A stretch of 64,000 bases of DNA, counting the filler, from Dirinaria sp. TL-2023a (lineage: Eukaryota): assembly GCA_051941275.1 (NCBI GenBank). It is 10 parts of 10 records of this genome, joined end to end, with 100 filler letters (N's around TTAATTAATTAA, not from the genome) between each part and the next. Parts side by side here need not be neighbours in the genome. Positions count along the whole stretch, not along the records: positions 25,905 to 32,247 come from JAVEBF010001494.1; 9 more parts are not named here. The stretch is one strand, 5' to 3'. Shown piece after piece: positions 6,402 through 58,008 of this stretch. Each line of letters starts with the position of its first letter. Position 1 is the first letter of the stretch. The position numbers and the translations under genes were made by a program. Below the pieces are notes generated by a model that was given only the letters and a program-made list of their open reading frames with translations, had not been told where the DNA came from and did not search any database.

Positions 6402-6501
6402 NNNNNNNNNNNNNNNNNNNNNNNNNNNNNNNNNNNNNNNNNNNNTTAATTAATTAANNNNNNNNNNNNNNNNNNNNNNNNNNNNNNNNNNNNNNNNNNN
6501 N
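6402..6501. other. Artificial contig linker
   Basis: N44-TTAATTAATTAA-N44 (stop codons in all six frames). Confidence 0.99.
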
Positions 6502-12881: not shown

Positions 12882-12981
12882 NNNNNNNNNNNNNNNNNNN
12901 NNNNNNNNNNNNNNNNNNNNNNNNNTTAATTAATTAANNNNNNNNNNNNNNNNNNNNNNNNNNNNNNNNNNNNNNNNNNNN
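12882..12981. other. Artificial contig linker
   Basis: N44-TTAATTAATTAA-N44. Confidence 0.99.
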
Positions 12982-19352: not shown

Positions 19353-19452
19353 NNNNNNNNNNNNNNNNNNNNNNNNNNNNNNNNNNNNNNNNNNNNTTAA
19401 TTAATTAANNNNNNNNNNNNNNNNNNNNNNNNNNNNNNNNNNNNNNNNNNNN
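19353..19452. other. Artificial contig linker
   Basis: N44-TTAATTAATTAA-N44. Confidence 0.99.
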
Positions 19453-20497
19453 GTCCGCGCCAGATGGGTCGGATACGGGTCCATCGGGTACATAAAGTAA
19501 GGTACATGAACAGCACGTTACCAATTACCATCTTGTTGACCTTATTACCCTGCATGGATCGAAATATTTGGAAGATACAAGGTGACTTCCCAATCTTGAT
19601 CATGGAGAGCAGCCCTATGTCAAAAACCGTAGTCGGTTAATTGCTTCCCCTGTAACAGGCAGGTGGATCCAGCAATTGATAGGCGCGGCTCTGCTGTTTG
19701 ATGTGGATGTGATGTGGAGGGAGAAAAAGAAAAGCATGGCACTGCTCGCATGGCAAATATGTAATGGGGCATTGACCTTGAAAGATCCGGATCCAGAACC
19801 CAAATGATGTCGATTCTGCATTCTCTAGTCTACTGACGTAGGCGTTTGGACCTGGGTTACTCACAGTGCTCGTTTGGTATTGCTGATCACGAGATGAGTT
19901 GCCCCATCCCCATTTCCGACGGTGGGCCCGAGTGCACCGACTCGTACAGTATTGGATCCTGACTAATTCGTATTCGCAGATCTCGCAGCACCCACGATCA
20001 ACACCAAAAAAGCTGTACATGTACGTTGATCTCGATTGCAGTGCATCCCAAACCGGTTTGAAGCTGCCTGGTTTAAGCGACATCGGAAAGCGCGCACATG
20101 CCCTGCACCATCCACGTGAGCTCAGATGTACCAGCCTACCAGGGCAAGGGCAAGCTCCGCTTTGGGCTCGTTTCGGATGGCAGGCACACCCACACGGCTG
20201 GATCGTTGCGGACACAGACCTCTTTGGGTGCTGTACGGTAATGTCCGCAATCCTTCCGTCAAATTAAATGTGCTTCCTGACGTACCTCGGCGGTGGAGCT
20301 GCTGCACCCGTGCTGCCTGTGATTGTGACATTCAGTGCTCCCGTACAGAACATTCGAAGCCGGAGAGAGCTACTGTCACCAATGCCTGGTGGCAGTCACG
20401 CTCGAATCATATATTGATCTCTAAATTCGATGGTTCCTGGTGCGAAGAAGTTTCGCAGTCACTCATCCAAATCTGGCAGATCTGCGCTCTCCACGGC

Positions 20498-22271
20498 CTA
20501 GCATTCGCAACGACCGTAATAGCGAGGCCAGGGAACAACGTCTCTGATGTTGCGCACGCCAGCCAGATAGCCCAGCAAACGATCGAATCCGAGTCCAAAC
20601 CCGCCATGAGGGACGCTGCCATACCGGCGCAGATCTGCGTACCAACCCAGATTGACGGACATGCCTGAAGGTGGCGAAACGGGATGGGGGTGTTGATCCG
20701 CGTTTTGAGTTCCCTGGGCACCCAGACTATGCTGATCCATAGATTGCAAAAGGGGCTCAAGACGGTGCTCACGCATAGAGCCGCCAACAACCTCGCAGCC
20801 GTCGGGTAGTAGAAGGTCAAAACATGCAGCTGTACTCGATTCTAGCCTGTCACCGGCAGAACCTTGCGCTGAGGGTAGCATGTAGAAGGGCTTGGTTCCT
20901 CGTGGGTAATCGGTCACAAAGACAGGGGACCCTTGGCCGACGTGTGCCGCTATAAATCTCTCATGCTCTAGCTGCAATCCGTCGTTCCATGATGGTGGGT
21001 AATCAAAGATTGTCTTTTCTGCAGCAACCCTTCGGAGGAGCTCAATGGCGTTTCTGTAGGTGACACGAGGCCACGGAGAATTTGTAAGAGCATCCCATCG
21101 ATCCGACACCAGCCTGGCAAATGTTCCTCCCTCGTCTTCGGACAGAACGTCATTTCTTCTCTCGAGGTCGACTAGTTCTTGCAGTATACCTGAAGTCCGT
21201 AGCTCTCTAACGAGCGTTTTTATCATATCTTCCGCTCCGTTCATGACATCGCACAAGCTCTCCGTCCGCATCTCAGCTTCCAGCATCCAGAATTCGCTGA
21301 CGTGACGCGGGGTATCACTTGTTTCGGCTCGGAACGTGGGGGACAGTGTCCAGACCTTTGGATGCTCATGTACAAAAGCTTCTAAATGCAACTGGGACGA
21401 CACTGTAAGATATTTTCGATCTCGGAAGAAATGCTCCTGATACTGCGGTAAAGGTATAGCGCTTGTCGCGCCGGCTCTTGTCGCTGCGTTAGCAGTAACC
21501 GTAAAAACCTCACCAGCGCCTTCGCAGTCTGAGGATGTAATGATGGGTGGTTGTAAACGGATGAAGCCCTTTGCACGAAAGTAGCATGCAAGATGGAAAT
21601 CGGATTCGGATCTGAGTCGCGCAAGTAGTGCACCCAATGGTGTCCGCAGTCTCAGGTGAGGGATGTTGCGGAGATACTCGGCAGTGTGGAATTTCTTTTG
21701 GAGAGGATACTTCTGTAGCAAAAAAATAATCAGCTTCGATTGCATTATCGACGGCAGCCCACACCTGGTGTCAGAAATGCTATCACAAACCTCAGCATCG
21801 GTTGGGCCGAGGATACGGACTTCCTGGGTCTTGAGCTCGTAAGGCTGTTCTTTACCAGGCGGACAATGTTGCCATATGCCCGTTAATGCAACCGAAGTCC
21901 CAGTACCAAGTCTTTCAATGCCTTAGCCTTGGGTGGCGCTGTTGTACAAGCTCCGCAGCAACGTACCCTTCTGCATGTTGAGGCTCCAGTATAGCCTGCA
22001 GAGGACGAGACGTGGAGCCGTCGCCGATCTCGAGGAAGCATCGATGCTTCTGCTTCCGAATTGTCCGCACCGATCCGGTGACACGAACATTATTAGAACC
22101 AGTGGTCGTGCCAGGTTCTTTGGCCAGTATCGCGGCGATGCTTTCGTCGCTGGAGCTCAGTGTTGACGCGTGCCGGTTCGGCCGCCTCTGCCCCAGAATC
22201 TCAATGCTGTAAGTGTAACGATGGCATGGTCGGTGGAGATGCAGGTGACGGTAGAGGGATCTCCGTAGCAT
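20498..22271 (-). CDS. SLM5: Mitochondrial asparaginyl-tRNA synthetase, ~546 aa; exons 22271-21967, 21911-21791, 21712-20498
   Basis: Arg-rich presequence; OB-fold (VTGSVRTIRKQK..FLEIGDGS); class IIb motifs YPLQKK, HLRLRT, TSSDCEGAGEVF, YLTVSSQLHLE, FRAE.S.TPRH.SEFWMLEAE, WYADLRRYGSVPHGGFGLGFDR. Confidence 0.93.
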
Positions 22272-25804: not shown

Positions 25805-25904
25805 NNNNNNNNNNNNNNNNNNNNNNNNNNNNNNNNNNNNNNNNNNNNTTAATTAATTAANNNNNNNNNNNNNNNNNNNNNNNNNNNNNNNNNNNNNNNN
25901 NNNN
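25805..25904. other. Artificial contig linker
   Basis: N44-TTAATTAATTAA-N44. Confidence 0.99.
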
Positions 25905-25935
25905 CGACGCAGTACTTGTGTGAAAGACGTGGCAG

Positions 25936-26288
25936 TGTAATAGATTATATGGCTACCTGATACTGTAGTTCCTGCTAGAACTAATCACTAAGGACTCCCC
26001 CCGAAAGGGTGGGTGGTCCCCTATACTTAACCGCGAGCGTTAACATTGCCCCACCGTGACGAGCCCCGCGCTGGCGGATCACGAGCGTTCGTAGGCACAA
26101 TGCTCTATAAGCGTCAACCGCTCACTGGCTCCTAGTTATCCTCGGGATTCAACCTTCCGACGCTGGCTCCTAGGCGGCGCTAGCCATGCTTCAGACCCCG
26201 AAGGATTGCCCCTGGGCACCCCCGGCTGCCAAGCGGCGCTAGCCTGCATTGGTCAATATATACCAATGTATCAGGTATCACTGTTACA
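25936..26288 (+). mobile_element. Probable retrotransposon LTR (353 bp), likely a 3' LTR whose internal region lies in the gap
   Basis: Ends TGTAATAG...CTGTTACA (7/8 inverted match); subterminal inverted repeat TACCTGATAC (25954) / GTATCAGGTA (26268); purine-rich GAAAGACGTGGCAG just upstream (PPT-like); internal short direct repeats; GC-rich unlike its flank; no TSD. Confidence 0.65.
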
Positions 26289-27314
26289 TCGTTGTGGGCC
26301 CAAGTTAACAGAGACCCTCGAGCTCGTTCAAGAACACTCTTCGATATCTCGAATGAATCAAGAAGTGACAGAAGCATGGTCAGATCTCTTGAAGCGGAGT
26401 TCACGATCACAGATTGTTGAGCAGCTGCGGGCACTGCAACAGGCTCTTGGTTGTGAGAAACGATCTGACTGGGCACGCCATTGAAAATGTTTGCATTTAA
26501 GAGGTTGGAAACCGCTGTGACACAAGAAGCAGGTATAGTTGAGTAAGTCAAAGGATTCTGTGTAGCAACGCTGATAGCCCGCTCAGAAAGGAAGTGAAAA
26601 GCGTCCGTCGAGGTTGCAGGCGCATTCTTCGTAACAAGTTCCAAATTCACGCTTCTTTGATGTTTTGCTTCATTATTCAAATCGTCATTTGTGCTTTCCT
26701 CTCTCTTTCGCTTTTGGGAGCTTCGTGTAGAGCTTTGTGGCGAGGAATTATCGATTTCGATATCTTTCCCAACTTAGTACACATGAAAACATGGGAATAA
26801 GACTCATATCTGTTTCTTGAGCTCGGACCTGATGAACCCTATCCTCAAGTCTGCGGCAGAGAAGAGACTCTCGATGTTTGACAATATATTTGACAAGTTT
26901 TATTTGGTGAGATCGATTAAGATGATGCACTTTGTGTTTGTCTAAGGCACAGAAAACTAACAGGAGACAAGGCCAATCTATGACGTTTGAATTCAATAGA
27001 AAGAGGCTTTGCTTCGCAGCCTTGATTTGCCAAAACTTCTTCAGGCCGTTCAAGAATCCTTCATGAATCTCGCTTAGGCCTTTCTTATTAATCTCTTCGA
27101 CAGTGCTTCGAAGCAGCGTTTTGTGCCTTTCGAGTGTTTGATCCACGTAGAGATCGCGATGTCGATCAAGACGCTCCTCAGAAAAGGCAACCAATGCAGC
27201 GCGAAGGTGGCAAACAAAGTCCTTAACTTCTTCGTCGGCAAGACTCTCGAAGCTATTCGATCATTTGAGATTAGGATTGATCGGAGTGCTGAAAGTGATG
27301 TCGGTAGATGACAT
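26289..27314 (-). pseudogene. Orphan gene with an internal TGA, one probable intron and a 3' end interrupted by the LTR
   Basis: ATG 27314 MSSTDITFSTPINPNLK*SNSFES... is in frame with ORF 26748-27194; the next exon (DIEIDNSSPQ...QKRKREES) is in frame with ORF 26180-26680; the last ~35 codons of that ORF are LTR sequence. Confidence 0.55.
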
Positions 27315-27632
27315 TGTGCATGTCGCTACGCTAGAATGTAAGATCTGATGAAGTACAAAGTCATCACTCATAAGATAGCTAAGTCCTGACTATCAATCGA
27401 TCAGCGCCCGTGAGGGTCCACTACACGATCCGATCTTGACGTACATCACGCTAGCTATCTATGGCGTGGTCCCCACCGACTGCAAATGCAAACGTAAATT
27501 GGCTTGGCCTCGTCGCTTGTCATTCCACGGCTTCTCGCACATTATCGAGTTAGACCTGGGTCCGAAATTATACGATCTCCTTCAACTAAGATTGAAAAAA
27601 AAAAACATTTTAAAAGTATCATTGAGGTAAAT

Positions 27633-28463
27633 CTAACGATTGTATCGAGCAAACGCTTCACGCATCGCTGCACGACCACAGTCAAATGCTATATCATTGC
27701 GGCGATTCAAGTCATTGATGGGACTGCCATCTATGTTCAGGCGACAGACTATCATATGAAGATCTATTCTTACACTCAACATCGAATCTCGAAGGCGATC
27801 CCTATCCTCGAGAAAGCGATCCTTTTCCTGTTGCACACATCGTAAATGAGCCTCCAACTTCGAGATCGACTTTTGAAGACAATCGTTATTCATGCGAAGA
27901 CTATCTATTTCCTCTTCCACATGTTGTACTTGAGCCTCCAATTTCGCGATTCTTTCGATATCTTTTTGTTTCCGAAATGCCTCGTTGTTGGCGGCGGCGA
28001 CGTTGATTCGCTTGCGTACTTTGGCCTTCGGCTCGATATACGTGTCATATATCATTCAGTGATCAAGATTCTCTGGTCTGCTTGATGCAGGCATAGCCTT
28101 TTTGCCTGACGACATCCGCGGCGTTGTGGACGAGGAACCAGCGCTCGAAGGAATCACAGATAGTGTGATGAATGACTCAACTCGACTGATCTGATTGTAA
28201 GAAGCCGAATTGACATCGCTGAAGTGTTCTCGACTCTGCGAAGTCTGCCGACTCATTTCGCGACACAAAGGTGATCTCGTCAAGAACGAGCTATTCGTGT
28301 CAGATTTTGAAAGAATAAGTTCTTTGATGATAGTTCTCGCATCTAAACAATCGTCGGGTCGTACTGAGACACTTCTGACACTTAGTTGAGAGTTCAGAAG
28401 ATTTTGAATATCGATTCGGCGCGAATCTTGAGGGTTCATTTCGGATACCTTGCTGAAAGACAT
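27633..28463 (-). pseudogene. Orphan coiled-coil protein gene broken by a single in-frame TGA
   Basis: ORFs 28056-28463 and 27633-28055 are contiguous in one frame (ENLDH*MIYDTYIEPK); the C-terminal half shows heptad repeats (RIAKLEAQVQHVEEEIDSLRMNNDCLQKSISKLE). Confidence 0.65.
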
Positions 28464-28653
28464 CTTGTAACACTGAGAATAATTTCAGACTACATTGAGA
28501 ATCTGGTGCTTGAAGCGGAGGGATTTTCGAATCTTAGGTGAAAATTCAAATAGGAAACAATGATTGTTCATTGTAGATCAGATGACAATTGATGGCAGAG
28601 AGGCCGACGCCGTATAAAACTATCTTACTTAATCTTAACTACCTACCTTAAAG

Positions 28654-28902
28654 TAGTCTCATACGGCGACGTCAAGTCGACGCTGCATAAGCTTCGGTAA
28701 GATACCTTAGTCTCATGCGGCAGCGCCAAGTCGACGCTGCATATTGCATAATGTACTTTAAGCAAAGGTAAGAAGCGAGATTAAGGTACTCCGTACTCCG
28801 TAGGCCGTTTACCCTTAATTGAAGATACCTTAGGTAAAGTACATGTACATAGTATAGTATTGTATCTTAGTCTCATGCGGCGGCGCCAAGTCGACGCTGC
28901 AT
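28654..28902. repeat. Three direct copies of a 35-bp imperfect-hairpin repeat
   Basis: Consensus TAGTCTCATGCGGCGGCGCCAAGTCGACGCTGCAT at 28654, 28708 and 28868. Confidence 0.95.
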
Positions 28903-29020
28903 CACATCATGTGGCAATCTTGCATCCGTAACATGCTCATTCGTCTCTTTGCTGGACCACAGATTAATCGTAGGACAATTGTTATAGTCTTATGGTCATC
29001 AGTTGAGCAACTTGTGGGAC

Positions 29021-30800
29021 ATGGTCCAAAACACGAGGCTTCGTTTGCCTCCGTTCTCAAATCAGTTGCGTTCCAATGGACAACCAAGGCAAAACGTCGC
29101 CTTTATTCCATATCAACGCCATGAAGCAGTTTCTCATGAGCGTCAGCAGACGAGTAATGTGCTTCAATTCTTGTTCACAAGGTTAAAACCACATACCAAC
29201 ATCTTCTAGAAGCTAGAACTATTTCAGCGTCGGCATACAACAGAGATATCTCTCGACTACAGCGGCGGGTCTTAGAGTCTTGTTCGCTTCTTCACGAAGA
29301 AAGTTCTGCCAAAGAAGTTCGACTTAGATCATTTTCTTTCGCAATTAGGCATCATCTGCAATGTAGTCCCATACATTGCGAAACACAATCAACCCGAATT
29401 CTATGAACTCGTGGTTGCGACACGATGAACCAACTTGCTGCAATTCTCAGAAAAGTCTCATGATTTTGAATTAGAGACTTATTATAATCCGCTTGAACCA
29501 ACTATGAAGGCCATATCTACCTTTGAGTACAGAGCGGCCAAACAAATAACTCGACTCAACACACTCAAAAATGCTGCGGAAGCGACTCGCAGTGAATGAG
29601 GGAATGAATCAGCAGAATGCTATCGAATTCTTATCAGCAACGCTGGCCTCGAAACACAGCTCGAAAGAGAAATGCTGAGTTGAGACATTCAAATGAGCTG
29701 TCTCACACACATATTCTTCAACATGTTTGCTGACAACGGCAAGCACTCCGACAATTGAGTTCTCGAGAGCTTCACGCAAAATCTTTTGTACTTTGATCTG
29801 AGATGTTGTGACCGCTATGACACATCCTCCGCCTTCGACATCCTTGATCGAGATCAGAGTGACTGGCTTCGACCTTTTCGAAACGATTTTACAGACAGTA
29901 TTTCAAAAGAGTCAGAGCAGCAGACTATTTCGTTATTTGAAAGTCTTCTTGAATTCTTCGGATGTAAGACGAATTGTCAACGGCACAAGTTCGGAATGAA
30001 TTATACGACAAGTCAAAATGCGTCTCTCTGCGTACAGTTCTTGAGCATTCTCTGTTCACGTCAATTCGAATATTTCGATTCGCAAGAAATTCAGCGCGCT
30101 TTTGCCAAGTCGAAACTTTTCGCAGGACAATCGGAGTCAGACATATCGAATCCGCTCGAATGAGGTAAAAAAATGTTAATATTCGTGTCTGTCGGCTTTT
30201 CTGACAACTATCTGGTACAACTGTTCAAACCGAAGCTGATGCACGCTAATAGAAGACTCAGAATCTATCATCGCAATTGCTGTGCGATTTTGATGCACGA
30301 AAAATCGAACGAATTCGTCTCGATCTGTAAATTCTCATTTCACGCAGAGTGAGAAAGCAATGCTAATTCAAGATAGTGAGCACTTCTACAGCTACCTTTC
30401 ATGCCTCGAAAAGCAAGAGAACAATATACTCGTGCTTCTTTCTTGAAGCTGAAGTTATCATAATCAGAATCAGACTCTGAAAGTGCTGAGAGATTGGATA
30501 AGATCGAGAGAAAGCTTGAATCTGTATAAACGATTAATTGAAGATCTATGACTTCAGCAAACACCGAAGCAGTTTGGAATGACTCTAATTGCTTTATTGT
30601 GTCGAGAGCAGCTCCTTTCATCGATCGATCAACACACTGCCTACAACACTGCTCGGCCTATCGTAGATAGCTTCTTGGCGGATCTTGATAGTATCTTGAA
30701 TGATCAAGAGGTCAGCAATAGGCGTGCGGTCTTTGGAAAAACGATCTCTTCACTCTGGAATGTGCTATTCTTCCTCGACTCTAACAAAGGAATGATTTAG
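29021..30800 (+). pseudogene. Long orphan gene (~570 codons) inactivated by in-frame TGA/TAG stops
   Basis: One frame from 29003 to ~30326 has stops only at 29207 and 29273 (TAG) and 29426, 29597, 29681, 29756, 30161 (TGA), with no frameshifts. After a putative GTAAAT..GCTAAT..AAG intron it continues with three more TGA into ORF 30579-30800. Confidence 0.65.
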
Positions 30801-31626
30801 ATACTTACGGACTTTGTTGATAGACAGCATTGTCTTAAAGTATCTCCGCTTCTGAAAACTCTGGATGGTATCTTGTATCGGTATTGCGCGAAGAAGGTTC
30901 ATGGGCAGGATCACAAAAGAGCTTTCGAGGAAGTCAAAGTGGAACTTGTTCAGTGTTTGAGGGTAATGTTTGTACGGGATCAGATTGCCGATGCTGACTG
31001 AATCATGATTCGGGACCAAACATTGGTGGATAGTATGTTTCGAGTCTCGGGGGTACGCTCTTCTCTGAATTTCTAAAGGAGCCCTCATCTTTGTCGGCTG
31101 TCTCTTGTCGTCATTTAGTATTAGTCATCATGTATCAAACGTGTCCATCGCCGCCCATCTATGCAGATCAATGATATCGTGATGACAAACTCAGTAGATG
31201 TTGAGTAGACTACTGCAAACCGGGAAAATTGAAAATGGCTCGGGCATGCCCCTTCAACTGAATTGGGAAATGATAAACGAACTTTGAGCCTCAGCTTTAT
31301 GATGCTGCATGAGACAAGAAGGACAGAGCATAAATATGATGGGTGCCTCGCTCGGACGTGACCTTGTTCTTCAAGTCTGACAGACGCCGTGGGGTTTCGT
31401 AGGTGTATTTTCGATCACGTCTTCTGCATCTTTATTTGACAGCTGTTAGATTATACTTTGTGGTAAGTGCAGTCTGTTCGAATTCGATGTCACGTGTCTC
31501 TCAGATCGATCAGCAGAAGAAACGACGTTATATGTTGAGATGTTCACAAGTTCAGGTCAGGCTGAATTCTGTCAGAAATGTGAACATGCGAACAACGAGC
31601 ACAGAATAAAGAAGTGTAAGACTTAC

Positions 31627-31866
31627 GGGTGTCAATTTCGATGAAAGCGCTGCCAGATTCGGATATGTCTGTCGTATCAATCGTATCATCTAAACATCCG
31701 GCAGTCGTCACTGCAAACAACGTGCTGTCGCGTAACTCAGATACATCGTGCAGCAGTTTTGGTACTAGCTTTCAGATATCGGGTGGCTCTCTACATGCAA
31801 CTGCTGGGCCTGAGCTATCTAATTCGGCCCCAGTGACTGCAGACTCGGTGGAAGGTCTTTGGATGC
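31627..31866 (-). pseudogene. Internal exon of a fourth degraded orphan gene
   Basis: Flanked by a GCTTAC..TAG acceptor and a GTAAGT donor; reads IQRPSTESAVTGAELDSSGPAVACREPPDI*KLVPKLLHDVSELRDS... with a single TGA. Confidence 0.4.
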
Positions 31867-32247
31867 TATGCTATGTAAGCATTTCCGTGGTGATTACAGA
31901 GCTCTGTTAGAGATGATCTTGCGGGCAACGCTACTACTGGTTTGACGAATTAGATTAGACTTATATAGCAGCAATATGAAATGTCCTCGAGATGCGCAAT
32001 GCAGCGCATGAATGATCTCTAGCTTGTGAGTAGTAGCTATCATAGGAGCGAGATGACAGTATATTCTCACTTAGAATCAAATAGCGCAGAATCTTCACCA
32101 GAATTGAGGAAGCGTCGAGTAGAGCAATGTCAAAAGCGGAGCGCTCGTGAAAAATGCTAGTATCAAGTCCTTAGAGGTTGCTCAGGGGAAAAAACATTAA
32201 ATTCGTCAACCACAAGGACGCAAGGATATCCGCGGTTGTAAAGGGAG

Positions 32248-32347
32248 NNNNNNNNNNNNNNNNNNNNNNNNNNNNNNNNNNNNNNNNNNNNTTAATTAAT
32301 TAANNNNNNNNNNNNNNNNNNNNNNNNNNNNNNNNNNNNNNNNNNNN
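32248..32347. other. Artificial contig linker
   Basis: N44-TTAATTAATTAA-N44. Confidence 0.99.
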
Positions 32348-38671: not shown

Positions 38672-38771
38672 NNNNNNNNNNNNNNNNNNNNNNNNNNNNN
38701 NNNNNNNNNNNNNNNTTAATTAATTAANNNNNNNNNNNNNNNNNNNNNNNNNNNNNNNNNNNNNNNNNNNN
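38672..38771. other. Artificial contig linker
   Basis: N44-TTAATTAATTAA-N44. Confidence 0.99.
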
Positions 38772-45087: not shown

Positions 45088-45187
45088 NNNNNNNNNNNNN
45101 NNNNNNNNNNNNNNNNNNNNNNNNNNNNNNNTTAATTAATTAANNNNNNNNNNNNNNNNNNNNNNNNNNNNNNNNNNNNNNNNNNNN
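45088..45187. other. Artificial contig linker
   Basis: N44-TTAATTAATTAA-N44. Confidence 0.99.
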
Positions 45188-45473: not shown

Positions 45474-48400
45474 TTATACATTGCCGCTATATCCACCCAA
45501 CCCTCTCCTCCTCATCCTTGCTCGGTAGAATTTCCGGCCTTCATCTACCCAAAACACGGAACTGGCGATGCCGGCCAGGATGACCAAGTCGCGCACATTC
45601 AATCCTTCGGTCTGAAAGATGCGCTGCAAGAAGGGCAGATAGATCACCGCCATCTGGCCCAAAAGGCTGCCACCGACGGCGAAGTTGAACATCCGGTTAC
45701 CCACAACCTTCAACTCGCCCCTCAAAACGCTTTTGCCCTCGCTCCGGCACGTCAATGCGTTGAACATGTCAAAAAAGACGAAGCAGGTGAATGTCATGGT
45801 CGTGTCTCGGGCCGTGACGGTGCTGTCGGTGGACATTTCGCGGATATAGATGATGATGGTGCCGAGCATGATTATGGATGCGGAGGTCAGCACGCGCTGT
45901 ATCAGAGTGCGGGTGAGGACTCGAGCATTCTTCGCTCGGGGCGGCCGCGACATGATTGCTGGGTCGACAGGCTCAACGCCCAGTGATTGCGCCGGTGGCC
46001 CATCCATCAGTATATCTATAGCCAACGTTAACGGGTTTCCACAATGAGAGACAAGCTTTGGTAGAGACATACTAATCCATAGTATTTGCATTGCATTCAA
46101 AGGATTTCTAAAGCCGAGAAAAGTGCTCAAAAGGACAAGAGACAGGGCTGCGACGCTCGTGCTGAGTTGAAAGGTGATGAAGTTCTGGATATTATAGAAA
46201 ATCCCTTTACCTTCCTCAATGGCACTGAGAATGGTTGAAAAGTCATCGTCCGTAAGGATCATATCTGCTGCCTCTTTAGCGACGTCGGTTCCAAGTAGAC
46301 CCATCGATATGCCGATATCAGCCCTTTTGAGGGCTGGAGCATCGTTCACTCCGTCGCCCGTCATGGCAACAACATCTCCTCGTGACTGAAGTGCCCGAAT
46401 AATCTTCATCTTATGATCCGGGCTTGTCCGTGCGAAAATAGTTGTACCGGACATAGCATTGGCAAGCTCTTCCGCTGACATGCGATCAAGCTCGTCTCCT
46501 CGTAGCACTGGCCGGTGACCCTCTGCAGCACTCGGTCTGGCTGGGTTCAGGGGCATTCCTAATTTTCTCGCAATGGCGAGAGCAGTCGTCTCAGCGTCCC
46601 CTGTAATCATAATCACTTTGACGCCGCCAGCCATAAGCCGTCGAATCGACTTATCGACGCCCTTTCTTGGGGGATCATTCATGCCAACGATACCGGCAAA
46701 TATTAGTCCTTTATACGCGTCTGGGCTGGTCTGGCGATTTGCATTGCGGTCCGACTCGGCGGGTCGTGGTGTTCCACTTCGGCTTGGAGCTTGCGAAGAA
46801 CGCCGAGGAAGATCTCTGTTGGAGCCACTAGCGAAGCCAAGGACTCGCAGGCCATCCTGTGCCATTTTCTCGGCAGCAGATATGGCTGCTTGTCTCCTAG
46901 GCTCGTCAAGGATGATCTCGCGACCTTCCCTTGAGAGATATGTATCGCACCGCTTTAGAATCTGCTCTAAAGCGCCTTTAATGTAAGCAACATCTGGGCC
47001 ACCGCCTAATTCGTTGCTCTGGTTGCCGCCTATAATCACGCCCATCCACTTCCTTTCGGAGCTGAAGGGGGTTTCTGCGCTGCGTGCTCCCAGTCTCTCG
47101 CGCACATCGTCTTCGCCGAAAGCATCCAGTAAGTCTAGCATGGCGACGTCTGTTGGTTGGCCTACCCAACGGCTCTTCGCGCTGGCGGAATTAGGGTCGT
47201 GCCCCAGAGTAGAAGACATGAGTGCTGCTGAAGCTGCCGCCGTCGCAGGTGAGCGACCATGTGCACCGGACAGCCGGGCGTTGTTCGCGATATTCCCAAT
47301 TCGTAAAATAGTCCGGATAACAGGGTCTGGTGTCGACGACGCCAGCTCTTTGTTTACCTCGATCACAGAAGGAGCATCAAAGTGCCACAACTTCGTTACA
47401 GTCATGTGGTTGAGCGTGAGGGTACCTAATTTATTGTCAACCATCATGGATGGGTCTCGGTGTACGACTTAAGCAATACCTGTCTTGTCACTGCAAACAA
47501 CATTGACCGAACCCAGTGTCTCCACACTTGGTAGTCTTCTGACGATCGCGCCTTGCTTCGCCATTCTTAACACACCCAATGCAAGCGTGACGGTGACAAT
47601 AATCGGCAAGCCCTCGGGGATGGCAGCCACAGCAAGCGAAACTCCAATGGTGAACATTTCCAAAGCTTTTCTCCCCTGCCAAATGCCTACGACCATGATT
47701 ATCGCAATGACGGCAAAAGACATGTAGCTGAGCTGCTGACCCAGCTTGTCCATCGCCAATTGCAGAGGCGTTCGCGGGCTTTCGATTTCTTGCAATGAAG
47801 CAGATATGGCGCCGAACTCCGTGGATCCTCCCGTACCGATCACTAGACCCTGGCCATGTCCTGAACGGACCAGTGTGCCCATGAATGCAATGTTGGTCTG
47901 TTCGTTCAGTCTGATGTCTGTCCCAACGGTTCCTGCTGCTGGGGATGCAAAAGGAGGCGAGTAAGGATTCGCTGGTGCTGCTGGACTCGTGAGAGCTTCA
48001 GCCTGTTTGAGAGCGGGCTCATTCTCCCCAGTGAGGTTCGACTCGTCAATAGACAAATCGGCCGCACGGGTGATCCTGATATCCGCAGGAATGCGATCGC
48101 CAGTGGAAAAGATCACAAGGTCGCCCGGGACAAGCTTTGAAGCAGTTACAGTGGTTGAAGCCTGCTTTGTTGCAGAGACCGAGCTGTCCAAACGACTTTC
48201 CAGCTCAATGCCAATTTCCCCATCTTCTCTCTGGCCTGATCGGTCCCTGCGTGATGTAGCATCAGGAGTACCGCGTATGAGGTGCGCATAGTGTGGCACC
48301 AATCTATTGAGCGCTTCTAGTGATTTTTCTGATCGGTACTCTTGGACGAAGCCCACGGTTACCACAATGGTCACCGCGATTGTAATGCTGACTGCATCGT

Positions 48401-51500: not shown

Positions 51501-51600
51501 NNNNNNNNNNNNNNNNNNNNNNNNNNNNNNNNNNNNNNNNNNNNTTAATTAATTAANNNNNNNNNNNNNNNNNNNNNNNNNNNNNNNNNNNNNNNNNNNN
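51501..51600. other. Artificial contig linker
   Basis: N44-TTAATTAATTAA-N44. Confidence 0.99.
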
Positions 51601-57908: not shown

Positions 57909-58008
57909 NNNNNNNNNNNNNNNNNNNNNNNNNNNNNNNNNNNNNNNNNNNNTTAATTAATTAANNNNNNNNNNNNNNNNNNNNNNNNNNNNNNNNNNNN
58001 NNNNNNNN
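57909..58008. other. Artificial contig linker
   Basis: N44-TTAATTAATTAA-N44. Confidence 0.99.

Follow-up and report, generated by a model that had tools for sequence, protein, structure and literature searches.

The stretch of Dirinaria sp. TL-2023a DNA analysed here (64,000 nucleotides from GenBank assembly GCA_051941275.1, referred to as the window) is a chain of ten unplaced contigs, ordered by falling length from 6,401 down to 5,992 bp. Positions 25905-32247 are exactly one of these contigs (GenBank accession number JAVEBF010001494.1, 6,343 bp, G+C 44%). This contig was found to carry three real genes, here designated A, B and C, none of which is a housekeeping gene or a transposase gene, as a preliminary description of the same DNA had also held. 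All three have been inactivated by directional C>T/G>A changes with a preference for CpC, and the conversion of Trp codons to TGA is the main nonsense outcome. A fourth gene had been proposed from an 'exon' on the minus strand at 31627-31866; this segment matches no Pfam family, nothing similar to it occurs in related loci, and a frame that overlaps it is just as open. It is without support and is not counted as a gene.

Exon models of genes A and C were built from homologues, while gene B was taken as a single frame (28463-27633). These homology-supported models contain 13 in-frame stops, 11 TGA and two TAG with no TAA, distributed as one TGA in gene A, one TGA in gene B, and nine TGA and two TAG in gene C. 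The same totals had been given in the preliminary description for four single frames. Read as they were written, those frames hold more stops, and TAA is present among them: eight, including two TAA, in 26289-27314 (-), a single internal TGA in 27633-28463 (-), 19, including three TAA, in 29021-30800 (+), and three TAG plus one TGA in 31627-31866 (-). The counts of the single frames are inflated because the frames read through introns into the wrong frame. Once the introns are modelled, A, B and C (approximately 1,150 codons) need no frameshifting indel, which bears out the earlier statement that frameshifts are lacking. At the donors of two introns, the one in gene A and the first one in gene C, a G>A change has left AT in place of GT; the gene C intron has GT...AG borders in each of the 17 related copies, where its lengths are not divisible by three. 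Gene C starts at 29228 or earlier, and the longer members of its family match 30357-31028 in a frame other than the one first proposed.

Table 1 Features of the studied contig and linkers of the window. Positions count along the window; o/e, observed/expected ratio; L and P numbers are our labels for related loci and proteins.
Feature	Position	Strand	Remarks
Gene A, exon 1	26810-27314	-	One in-frame TGA (27261-27263), Trp in relatives
Gene A, intron (46 nt)	26764-26809	-	5' GT reads AT, G>A after a G; L009 has GT
Gene A, exon 2, first part only	26289-26763	-	No in-frame stop
Gene B (276 codons)	27633-28463	-	TGA at 28056-28058 where P0001 has Trp; ends at TAG
Gene C	29228-31076	+	Exons 29228-29692, 29744-30214, 30262-30326 and 30377-31076; natural stop TAA at 31074
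Gene C, introns	29693-29743, 30215-30261, 30327-30376	+	5' GT of 29693-29743 reads AT
40-nt repeat, three copies	28649-28688, 28703-28742, 28863-28902		In the divergent spacer between B and C (span 28649-28902)
Left end of contig (384 bp)	25905-26288		G+C-rich (55%), unmutated; CC o/e 1.10, GG o/e 1.00
Right tail	31077-32247		CC/GG still depleted (o/e 0.55 / 0.71); no supported gene; includes the proposed 'exon' 31627-31866 (-)
Nine linkers N44-TTAATTAATTAA-N44	6402-6501, 12882-12981, 19353-19452, 25805-25904, 32248-32347, 38672-38771, 45088-45187, 51501-51600, 57909-58008		
Linker at left contig end	25805-25904		
Linker at right contig end	32248-32347		

From base composition, the chance that at least 11 of 13 stops would be TGA is p=9e-5. 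Nine of the 13 (eight TGA and one TAG) lie at positions where the relatives have Trp encoded by TGG, namely 27261 in gene A, 28056 in gene B and, in gene C, 29597, 29681, 30161, 30444, 30549 and 30999 (TGA) and 29273 (TAG). For these nine the earlier reading of the stops as former Trp codons stands; it does not extend to the other four, which all belong to gene C and replace Cys TGT (29426), Arg CGG (29756), Ser TCY (30450), and Arg CGA or Gln (30798). Stops off Trp positions are thus four of 11 in this gene, three of the nine TGA and one of the two TAG. Seen from the side of the relatives, seven of the ten consensus TGG codons of gene C are stops here (six TGA, one TAG) and three are kept as TGG, as against none of 22 consensus Gln codons turned to stops (Trp vs Gln, p=4e-5).

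Nine stops at Trp of the relatives, in frames that are open for hundreds of codons under translation table 4, are also what would be seen in DNA read with TGA as Trp, whether from an organelle, a plasmid, an endosymbiont or a contaminant, and in that case the genes would be intact. However, stops are found at Arg, Cys and Ser codons of the relatives as well, TAG occurs in frame, and gene C retains three TGG codons. The same bias appears at Pro and Gly codons, at splice sites and in the gene-less tail; moreover, the introns are spliceosomal, some copies in the relatives are intact under the standard code, and the G+C content is 44%. This explanation is already contradicted by the data and is left with next to no probability.

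Dinucleotide composition was compared with that of the rest of the window. In the contig, CC and GG have o/e values of 0.61 and 0.72, vs 0.96 and 0.94 in the other nine contigs taken together; TC (1.34) and GA (1.27) are elevated, TA (0.65) is unchanged, CA is at 1.10, and CpG, also at 1.10, is not lowered. Among 232 segments of 500 nt examined, CC+GG o/e fell below 0.6 in 11, ten of them in the studied contig. The depletion spans 26289-32247 and reaches its greatest depth on gene C (CC 0.39). At 29501-30750 the o/e of CC+GG is 0.27-0.47, near 26505-27104 CC and GG taken separately are 0.67-0.78, and there is no depletion in the left 384 bp. Two patches are strand-asymmetric, 28305-28604 (CC 1 vs GG 14) and 30705-31004 (CC 3 vs GG 20); in these CC has almost vanished and GG is near expectation, as if one strand alone was hit.

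In order to describe the spectrum of changes, gene C DNA was aligned with 17 related metagenome copies (68-72% identical), and the consensus of the eight least-damaged copies was used as a proxy for its ancestor. Counting either strand, C>T changes affected 86 of 184 CpC sites (47%) vs 123 of 644 other C (19%), with an odds ratio of 3.7 and p=3e-13; by context, the latter were CpA 34/239 (14%), CpG 42/187 (22%) and CpT 47/218 (22%). Reverse transitions amounted to 101/857 (12%). The alignment contains 174 C>T/G>A vs 96 reverse changes, and analysis of the amino-acid consensus gave the same bias (34 vs 11). Gene B differs from its relative P0001 at 54 of 176 aligned residues, 30 of these differences being single C>T/G>A steps and five the reverse; a CpC/GpG context applies to 23 of the 30, and eight are Pro>Ser. 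Replacements of the Pro>Ser and also of the Gly>Asp/Glu type are over-represented. The nucleotide 5' of the hit C has little effect (0.19-0.29), and an APOBEC3G-like context, in which the C is preceded by a C (CC>CT), was rejected on this basis.

Ordinary old pseudogenes undergoing untargeted decay, with an excess of TGA arisen by chance, would agree with the four stops off Trp codons and with a background divergence of approximately 12-20%. The context tests already contradict this explanation, since neither the excess of TGA, nor the preference for CpC over other contexts, nor the difference between Trp and Gln codons is compatible with chance at the p values given above. Furthermore, the loss of CC/GG is confined to one contig of ten and no frameshifting indel is needed in the three genes. 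Untargeted decay is therefore hardly credible.

The changes recall repeat-induced point mutation (RIP). Canonical RIP, known from Neurospora crassa and most Pezizomycotina, acts before meiosis, depends on RID and/or DIM-2, and targets duplicated DNA. The contig resembles its products in the dense, directional C>T/G>A changes on both strands over kilobases, with nonsense codons and no indels, and in the relatives a multicopy family is damaged, some copies (L008, L012) in the classical CpA form. It differs in that CpC is preferred (47%), CpA is spared (14%), and TpA is not raised. Canonical RIP (CpA>TpA) converts TGG to TAG, and Gln codons to TAA or TAG, and TGA is not attainable by this route; for TGG to become TGA, a G that follows another G has to change to A, and this amounts to C>T at CpC on the opposite strand. 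The process is distinct from classical CpA RIP, and with CpC as the target and CpA spared the stops are TGA from Trp and not TAA/TAG from Gln. The suggestion of RIP-type mutation made beforehand thus stands as far as directional C>T/G>A change, and not a change of code, is concerned, and fails for the classical CpA form. Indices built on TpA/ApT and on CpA+TpG would not flag this signature, unlike that of canonical RIP.

According to passages of the RIPCAL paper (PMC2621366), the dominant RIP biases are CpA, CpG and CpT, and CpC is listed merely as a possibility. No report of CpC-dominant RIP was found in the literature searched, from which subscription papers and supplements were outside the scope, so that absence is not proven. 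The same passages cite CpG/TpCpG-biased RIP-like mutation in Aspergillus nidulans MATE and Microbotryum Ty1, which on that account provide a precedent for dinucleotide preferences of RIP-like processes that vary among fungi. In line with the CpG-biased systems, one related copy (L021) is hit at CpG (49%) about as strongly as at CpC (57%); unlike them, the contig is hit at 22% of CpG, about half the rate of CpC, and its CpG o/e is not lowered.

The three genes had been regarded as orphans, which did not hold, as each has relatives. Gene A has homologues in metagenome contigs. The homology ends at about 26289, where exon 2 of the relatives continues for approximately 480 aa into a TPR-like region; this long exon 2 resembles in Atlas a TPR/MalT-type helical array (features 0.97, structure TM 0.68), an Atlas-based lead to a TPR-like C-terminus of the relatives. 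A word-index search with exon 1 at near length scored 28 candidates, none of which passed.

Gene B encodes a basic region and a coiled coil. It has one relative, P0001, with 65% identity and a Trp at the position of the TGA. Pfam searches over all frames of the contig gave nothing but coiled-coil noise for this gene, and with bZIP_1 it reached 12.8-14.2 bits, below the cut-off of 27.6. The open reading frames (ORFs) found at the position of gene B in three related loci (L005, L009 and L021) match bZIP_2 with 27.1-28.5 bits vs a cut-off of 22.3; the match of gene B to them is weak (E=0.07 pairwise) and covers the basic region only. Because of this restricted match and the Pfam score below the cut-off, gene B is called a bZIP-like positional counterpart and not a proven orthologue.

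For gene C, exhaustive searching disclosed 151 clusters at E<=1e-3, 51 of them at E<=1e-10, from Pezizomycotina, with hypothetical proteins of Rhexocercosporidium, Bisporella, Fulgogasparrea and Cirrosporium among the matches. None of 16 relatives scanned reached a Pfam threshold, the sole listed match being CBP_BcsR on P0012 (16.9 vs a cut-off of 25.2 bits). The structure predicted for the family is all-alpha and confident (predicted local distance difference test, pLDDT, 81.7). A Foldseek search of this model against the PDB gave nothing below E=0.5, the best Z in a wide VIA-align search was 5.6, to a helical-repeat-like structure and below the level that is meaningful for helical proteins, and Atlas gave nothing above 0.79. 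Gene C belongs to an unnamed all-alpha family of Pezizomycotina.

Genes B and C diverge from a spacer with a triplicated 40-nt repeat, as had been described. The hairpins attributed to this repeat are modest (-6.9 to -9.5 kcal/mol, z -1.3 to -2.6), and the repeat was not found in the spacers of relatives. Its first copy contains GACGTCA (28664-28672), where the other two copies read GCGCCA; we take this motif to resemble a CRE-type bZIP half-site, lying in the spacer that gene C has in common with the bZIP-like gene B.

A metagenome scan with a narrow gene C alignment yielded 23 loci, the assemblies being told apart by prefix. The order A(-) ... C(+) is kept in seven of them by tblastn (L004-L006 and L008-L011) and in L021 by blastn, and a minus-strand bZIP_2 ORF of 315-330 aa lies between A and C in all three loci scanned for it (L005, L009, L021). 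Up to four gene C loci were found per assembly prefix, the copies being 75-100% identical to each other, and blocks of about 11 kb occur twice with approximately 95% identity and different flanks (related metagenome contigs). When the four-exon model was applied to 17 gene C copies, six were intact (three distinct sequences), one had a single stop, and the rest were broken. The preliminary description had regarded single-copy genes with intact syntenic orthologues in relatives as evidence against a mobile or accessory origin; intact syntenic homologues do exist, but in the relatives they are not single-copy.

Two types of damage were seen among the broken copies, which serve as a natural control. 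L008 and L012/L020 have a CpA signature, with 17% and 32% of CpA sites changed and no more than 5% elsewhere, and their stops (five and nine) are TAA or TAG only. L013, L015 and L002 favour CpC (33%, 30% and 21%), as does L021, where in addition to the CpC and CpG rates given above 21 of 23 stops are TGA. Both types recur in the flanks: at 14-20 kb of L009, CpA is normal and the o/e of CC+GG is 0.05-0.31, and at 14-19 kb of L008, CA+TG is 0.40-0.60 and TpA/ApT 1.0-1.6. Both damage types sometimes occur under one assembly prefix; since the relatives are metagenomes, one organism and two cannot be told apart as the source of the CpA and CpC types. As a side observation, tracts nearly devoid of CC/GG (o/e down to 0.05) with normal CpA extend over L009:13001-20000, L013:8001-16000 and L021:4001-13248, and CpA-depleted tracts with raised TpA/ApT over L008:14001-19288, L012:1-1000 and 20001-20974, and L003:14001-16000.

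The reading that we favour, and consider probable as a whole, is that the contig is a dead accessory block struck by a RIP-like, CpC-preferring burst that duplication triggered. It would be a dead copy of a small gene block comprising gene A, a bZIP-like regulator (gene B) and gene C. The inactivation by a C-to-T burst is shown: it acted on both strands with a preference for CpC>TpC (GpG>GpA on the other strand), so that on the coding strand TGG becomes TGA, CCN (Pro) becomes TCN (Ser) and GGN (Gly) becomes GAN (Asp/Glu). GT splice donors preceded by a G were destroyed as well, and the Gln codons that CpA RIP usually strikes were left untouched. As in RIP, the trigger would have been the presence of more than one nuclear copy of the block, or at least of gene C; in favour of this, the family is multicopy and RIP-damaged in relatives and the damage peaks on gene C. 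The multicopy state held to be probable in the preliminary description thus has indirect support from the relatives. Less surely, the block may have been carried in or beside a Starship-like cargo region.

Several points weigh against this reading. Four of the 13 stops replace codons other than Trp, and one Trp of gene C became TAG, a change in CpA context. With relatives about 70% identical, their consensus can serve only as a stand-in for the ancestral gene C. Gene B stays below the bZIP_1 cut-off, and its resemblance to the bZIP ORFs of the relatives is weak. No look-alike of the contig was found in the other surveyed windows, either by place or by sequence, and Pfam searches on the frames of the contig disclosed no captain, DUF3723 or FRE gene. 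Last, the damage is moderate, with 47% of CpC sites hit over a background divergence of about 12-20%, and under repeated RIP a true repeat might have been damaged further.

The moderate load would also be explained by the main rival, namely leakage. According to this, the contig is a single-copy locus reached by spill-over of the same hypermutation from repeats lying just past the contig ends, and its genes were never duplicated. Leakage would suit the strand-asymmetric CC/GG patches, genes that are not transposon genes, contig ends that are assembly breaks, and the lack of a second copy in the other surveyed windows. RIP reportedly leaks into Leptosphaeria maculans effector genes that lie beside repeats, where the changes are said to be CpA-type and graded from the repeat border. 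The contig is similar in that non-transposon genes carry RIP-type nonsense mutations, and different in that its changes are CpC-type and peak in mid-contig. The depletion shows no fall-off from the contig ends and is strongest in the middle, on gene C, the module of which relatives have several copies, and the left 384 bp are unmutated. We judge leakage to be rather improbable, and retain a duplicated accessory block as the better account.

The neighbourhood of gene C in the related loci was examined with regard to the Starship-like cargo element proposed in the preliminary description. A ferric reductase (FRE) gene follows gene C in 11 of the 23 loci, directly in L004/L005, and is weaker or partial in two more. 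A DUF3723-bearing segment of 4.7-6.7 kb is located 2-5 kb downstream of gene C in L006, L009-L011, L013 and L016. In L006, L013 and L016 the FRE gene is split after approximately 51 codons by a segment with DUF3723 fragments, and L009-L011 have DUF3723 fragments, the remainder of the FRE gene lying about 7 kb downstream of gene C. The segment occupies L006:12025-16679 (4,655 bp) and L016:12026-18694 (6,669 bp) and is absent from L004/L005 (junction L005:12024/12025), L005 and L006 being approximately 99% identical apart from it. A possible explanation is that a DUF3723 unit is polymorphic for insertion/deletion at this place; neither a terminal inverted repeat nor a target duplication was seen. 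L012/L020 carry SesA/PigL_N and NB-ARC+TPR genes, L016 has two FRE matches and one DUF3723 match within 21 kb, and on the other side of gene C the loci of L012/L016 type have HD-domain and adenylate kinase genes.

In the sections of PMC9156397 that deal with them, DUF3723, FRE, PLP and NLR genes are given as conserved companions of Starships, and regions with at least three companion matches and no captain are called degraded Starships. Starships are also described in lichen fungi, such as Tangerine of Xanthoria, in part of PMC13486527. Compared with these accounts, the relatives of the block resemble Starships or degraded Starships, as they adjoin FRE, DUF3723 and NLR-type genes, occur in several copies, and have mosaic flanks and RIP-like damage. 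The contig itself is unlike them, with no captain, element ends or marker genes, and the conserved companions named in those sections do not include A, B or C. That a (degraded) Starship carried the block as cargo is a special case of the favoured reading, forming a share of its probability and not an addition to it, and we regard it as possible but doubtful. The companions near gene C in relatives, the criterion for degraded Starships and the occurrence of Starships in lichens are in its favour. On the other hand, no DUF3435 captain was found among 179 ORFs from 13 of the 23 related loci (+/-10 kb around gene C), FRE and NLR genes are common outside Starships too, and the HD-domain and adenylate kinase neighbours count against it. 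On the contig no marker gene is found, and its ends are gaps at which no element ends are visible. As the markers occur in relatives and none on the contig, the Starship link is a lead from the relatives and not a finding on the contig; the cargo proposal is in this sense no more than suggestive. A virus-like insertion, which had been named beside it, found no support.

A broader proposal can be made, since copies of one family carry either signature, each with the matching stops (TAA/TAG or TGA). Lichen-type fungi would then run two separable repeat-mutating activities, one for CpA and one for CpC, and in addition the A-bZIP-C block would be an unrecognised companion of FRE and DUF3723 in Starship-like regions. 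We put this forward as a speculation that is more probably wrong than right by a wide measure.

As for the rest of the window, the contigs are joined by artificial linkers; therefore the genes flanking the studied contig are not its physical neighbours and any synteny across the joints is artificial. The contig being bounded by linkers, the edges of the 'block' are assembly gaps. The left 384 bp are unrelated to the relatives of gene A, whose exon continues at this place, and may represent either a small insertion of later date or the junction of a rearrangement. They carry a 21-nt direct repeat (26165 and 26224) and a 10-nt inverted match (25954-25963 / 26268-26277), and no further copy of them was found in the window or in the related loci. 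Their interpretation as a miniature inverted-repeat transposable element was dropped, its basis being the single 10-nt inverted match, with no other copy. The other nine contigs contain ordinary intron-bearing fungal genes in the standard code, among them genes for GH47, a class II aminoacyl-tRNA synthetase, a PMR1-type P-type ATPase, Rad21/Rec8, a Na/H exchanger and ferroportin. The frame of the P-type ATPase is split by one stop, which falls in a short intron (47442-47489, -) that interrupts the DKTG phosphorylation motif, and the gene looks intact.

The process that inactivated genes A, B and C is RIP-like yet not canonical, as its CpC target differs from that of the classic fungal repeat defence, and it disables ordinary-looking accessory genes and not transposons alone. 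If the preference for CpC is a true property of the genome defence of this fungus, RIP indices based on CpA/TpA underestimate the extent of RIP in lichen fungi, and 'TGA-only' pseudogenes would be a simple mark for finding RIP of this kind. Should the link to the FRE, DUF3723 and NLR neighbourhood hold, three more candidate cargo or companion genes would be available for lichen Starships. Paralogues of one family that bear damage of either the CpA or the CpC type are a natural experiment, and could help to separate the enzymes or pathways of RIP specificity.

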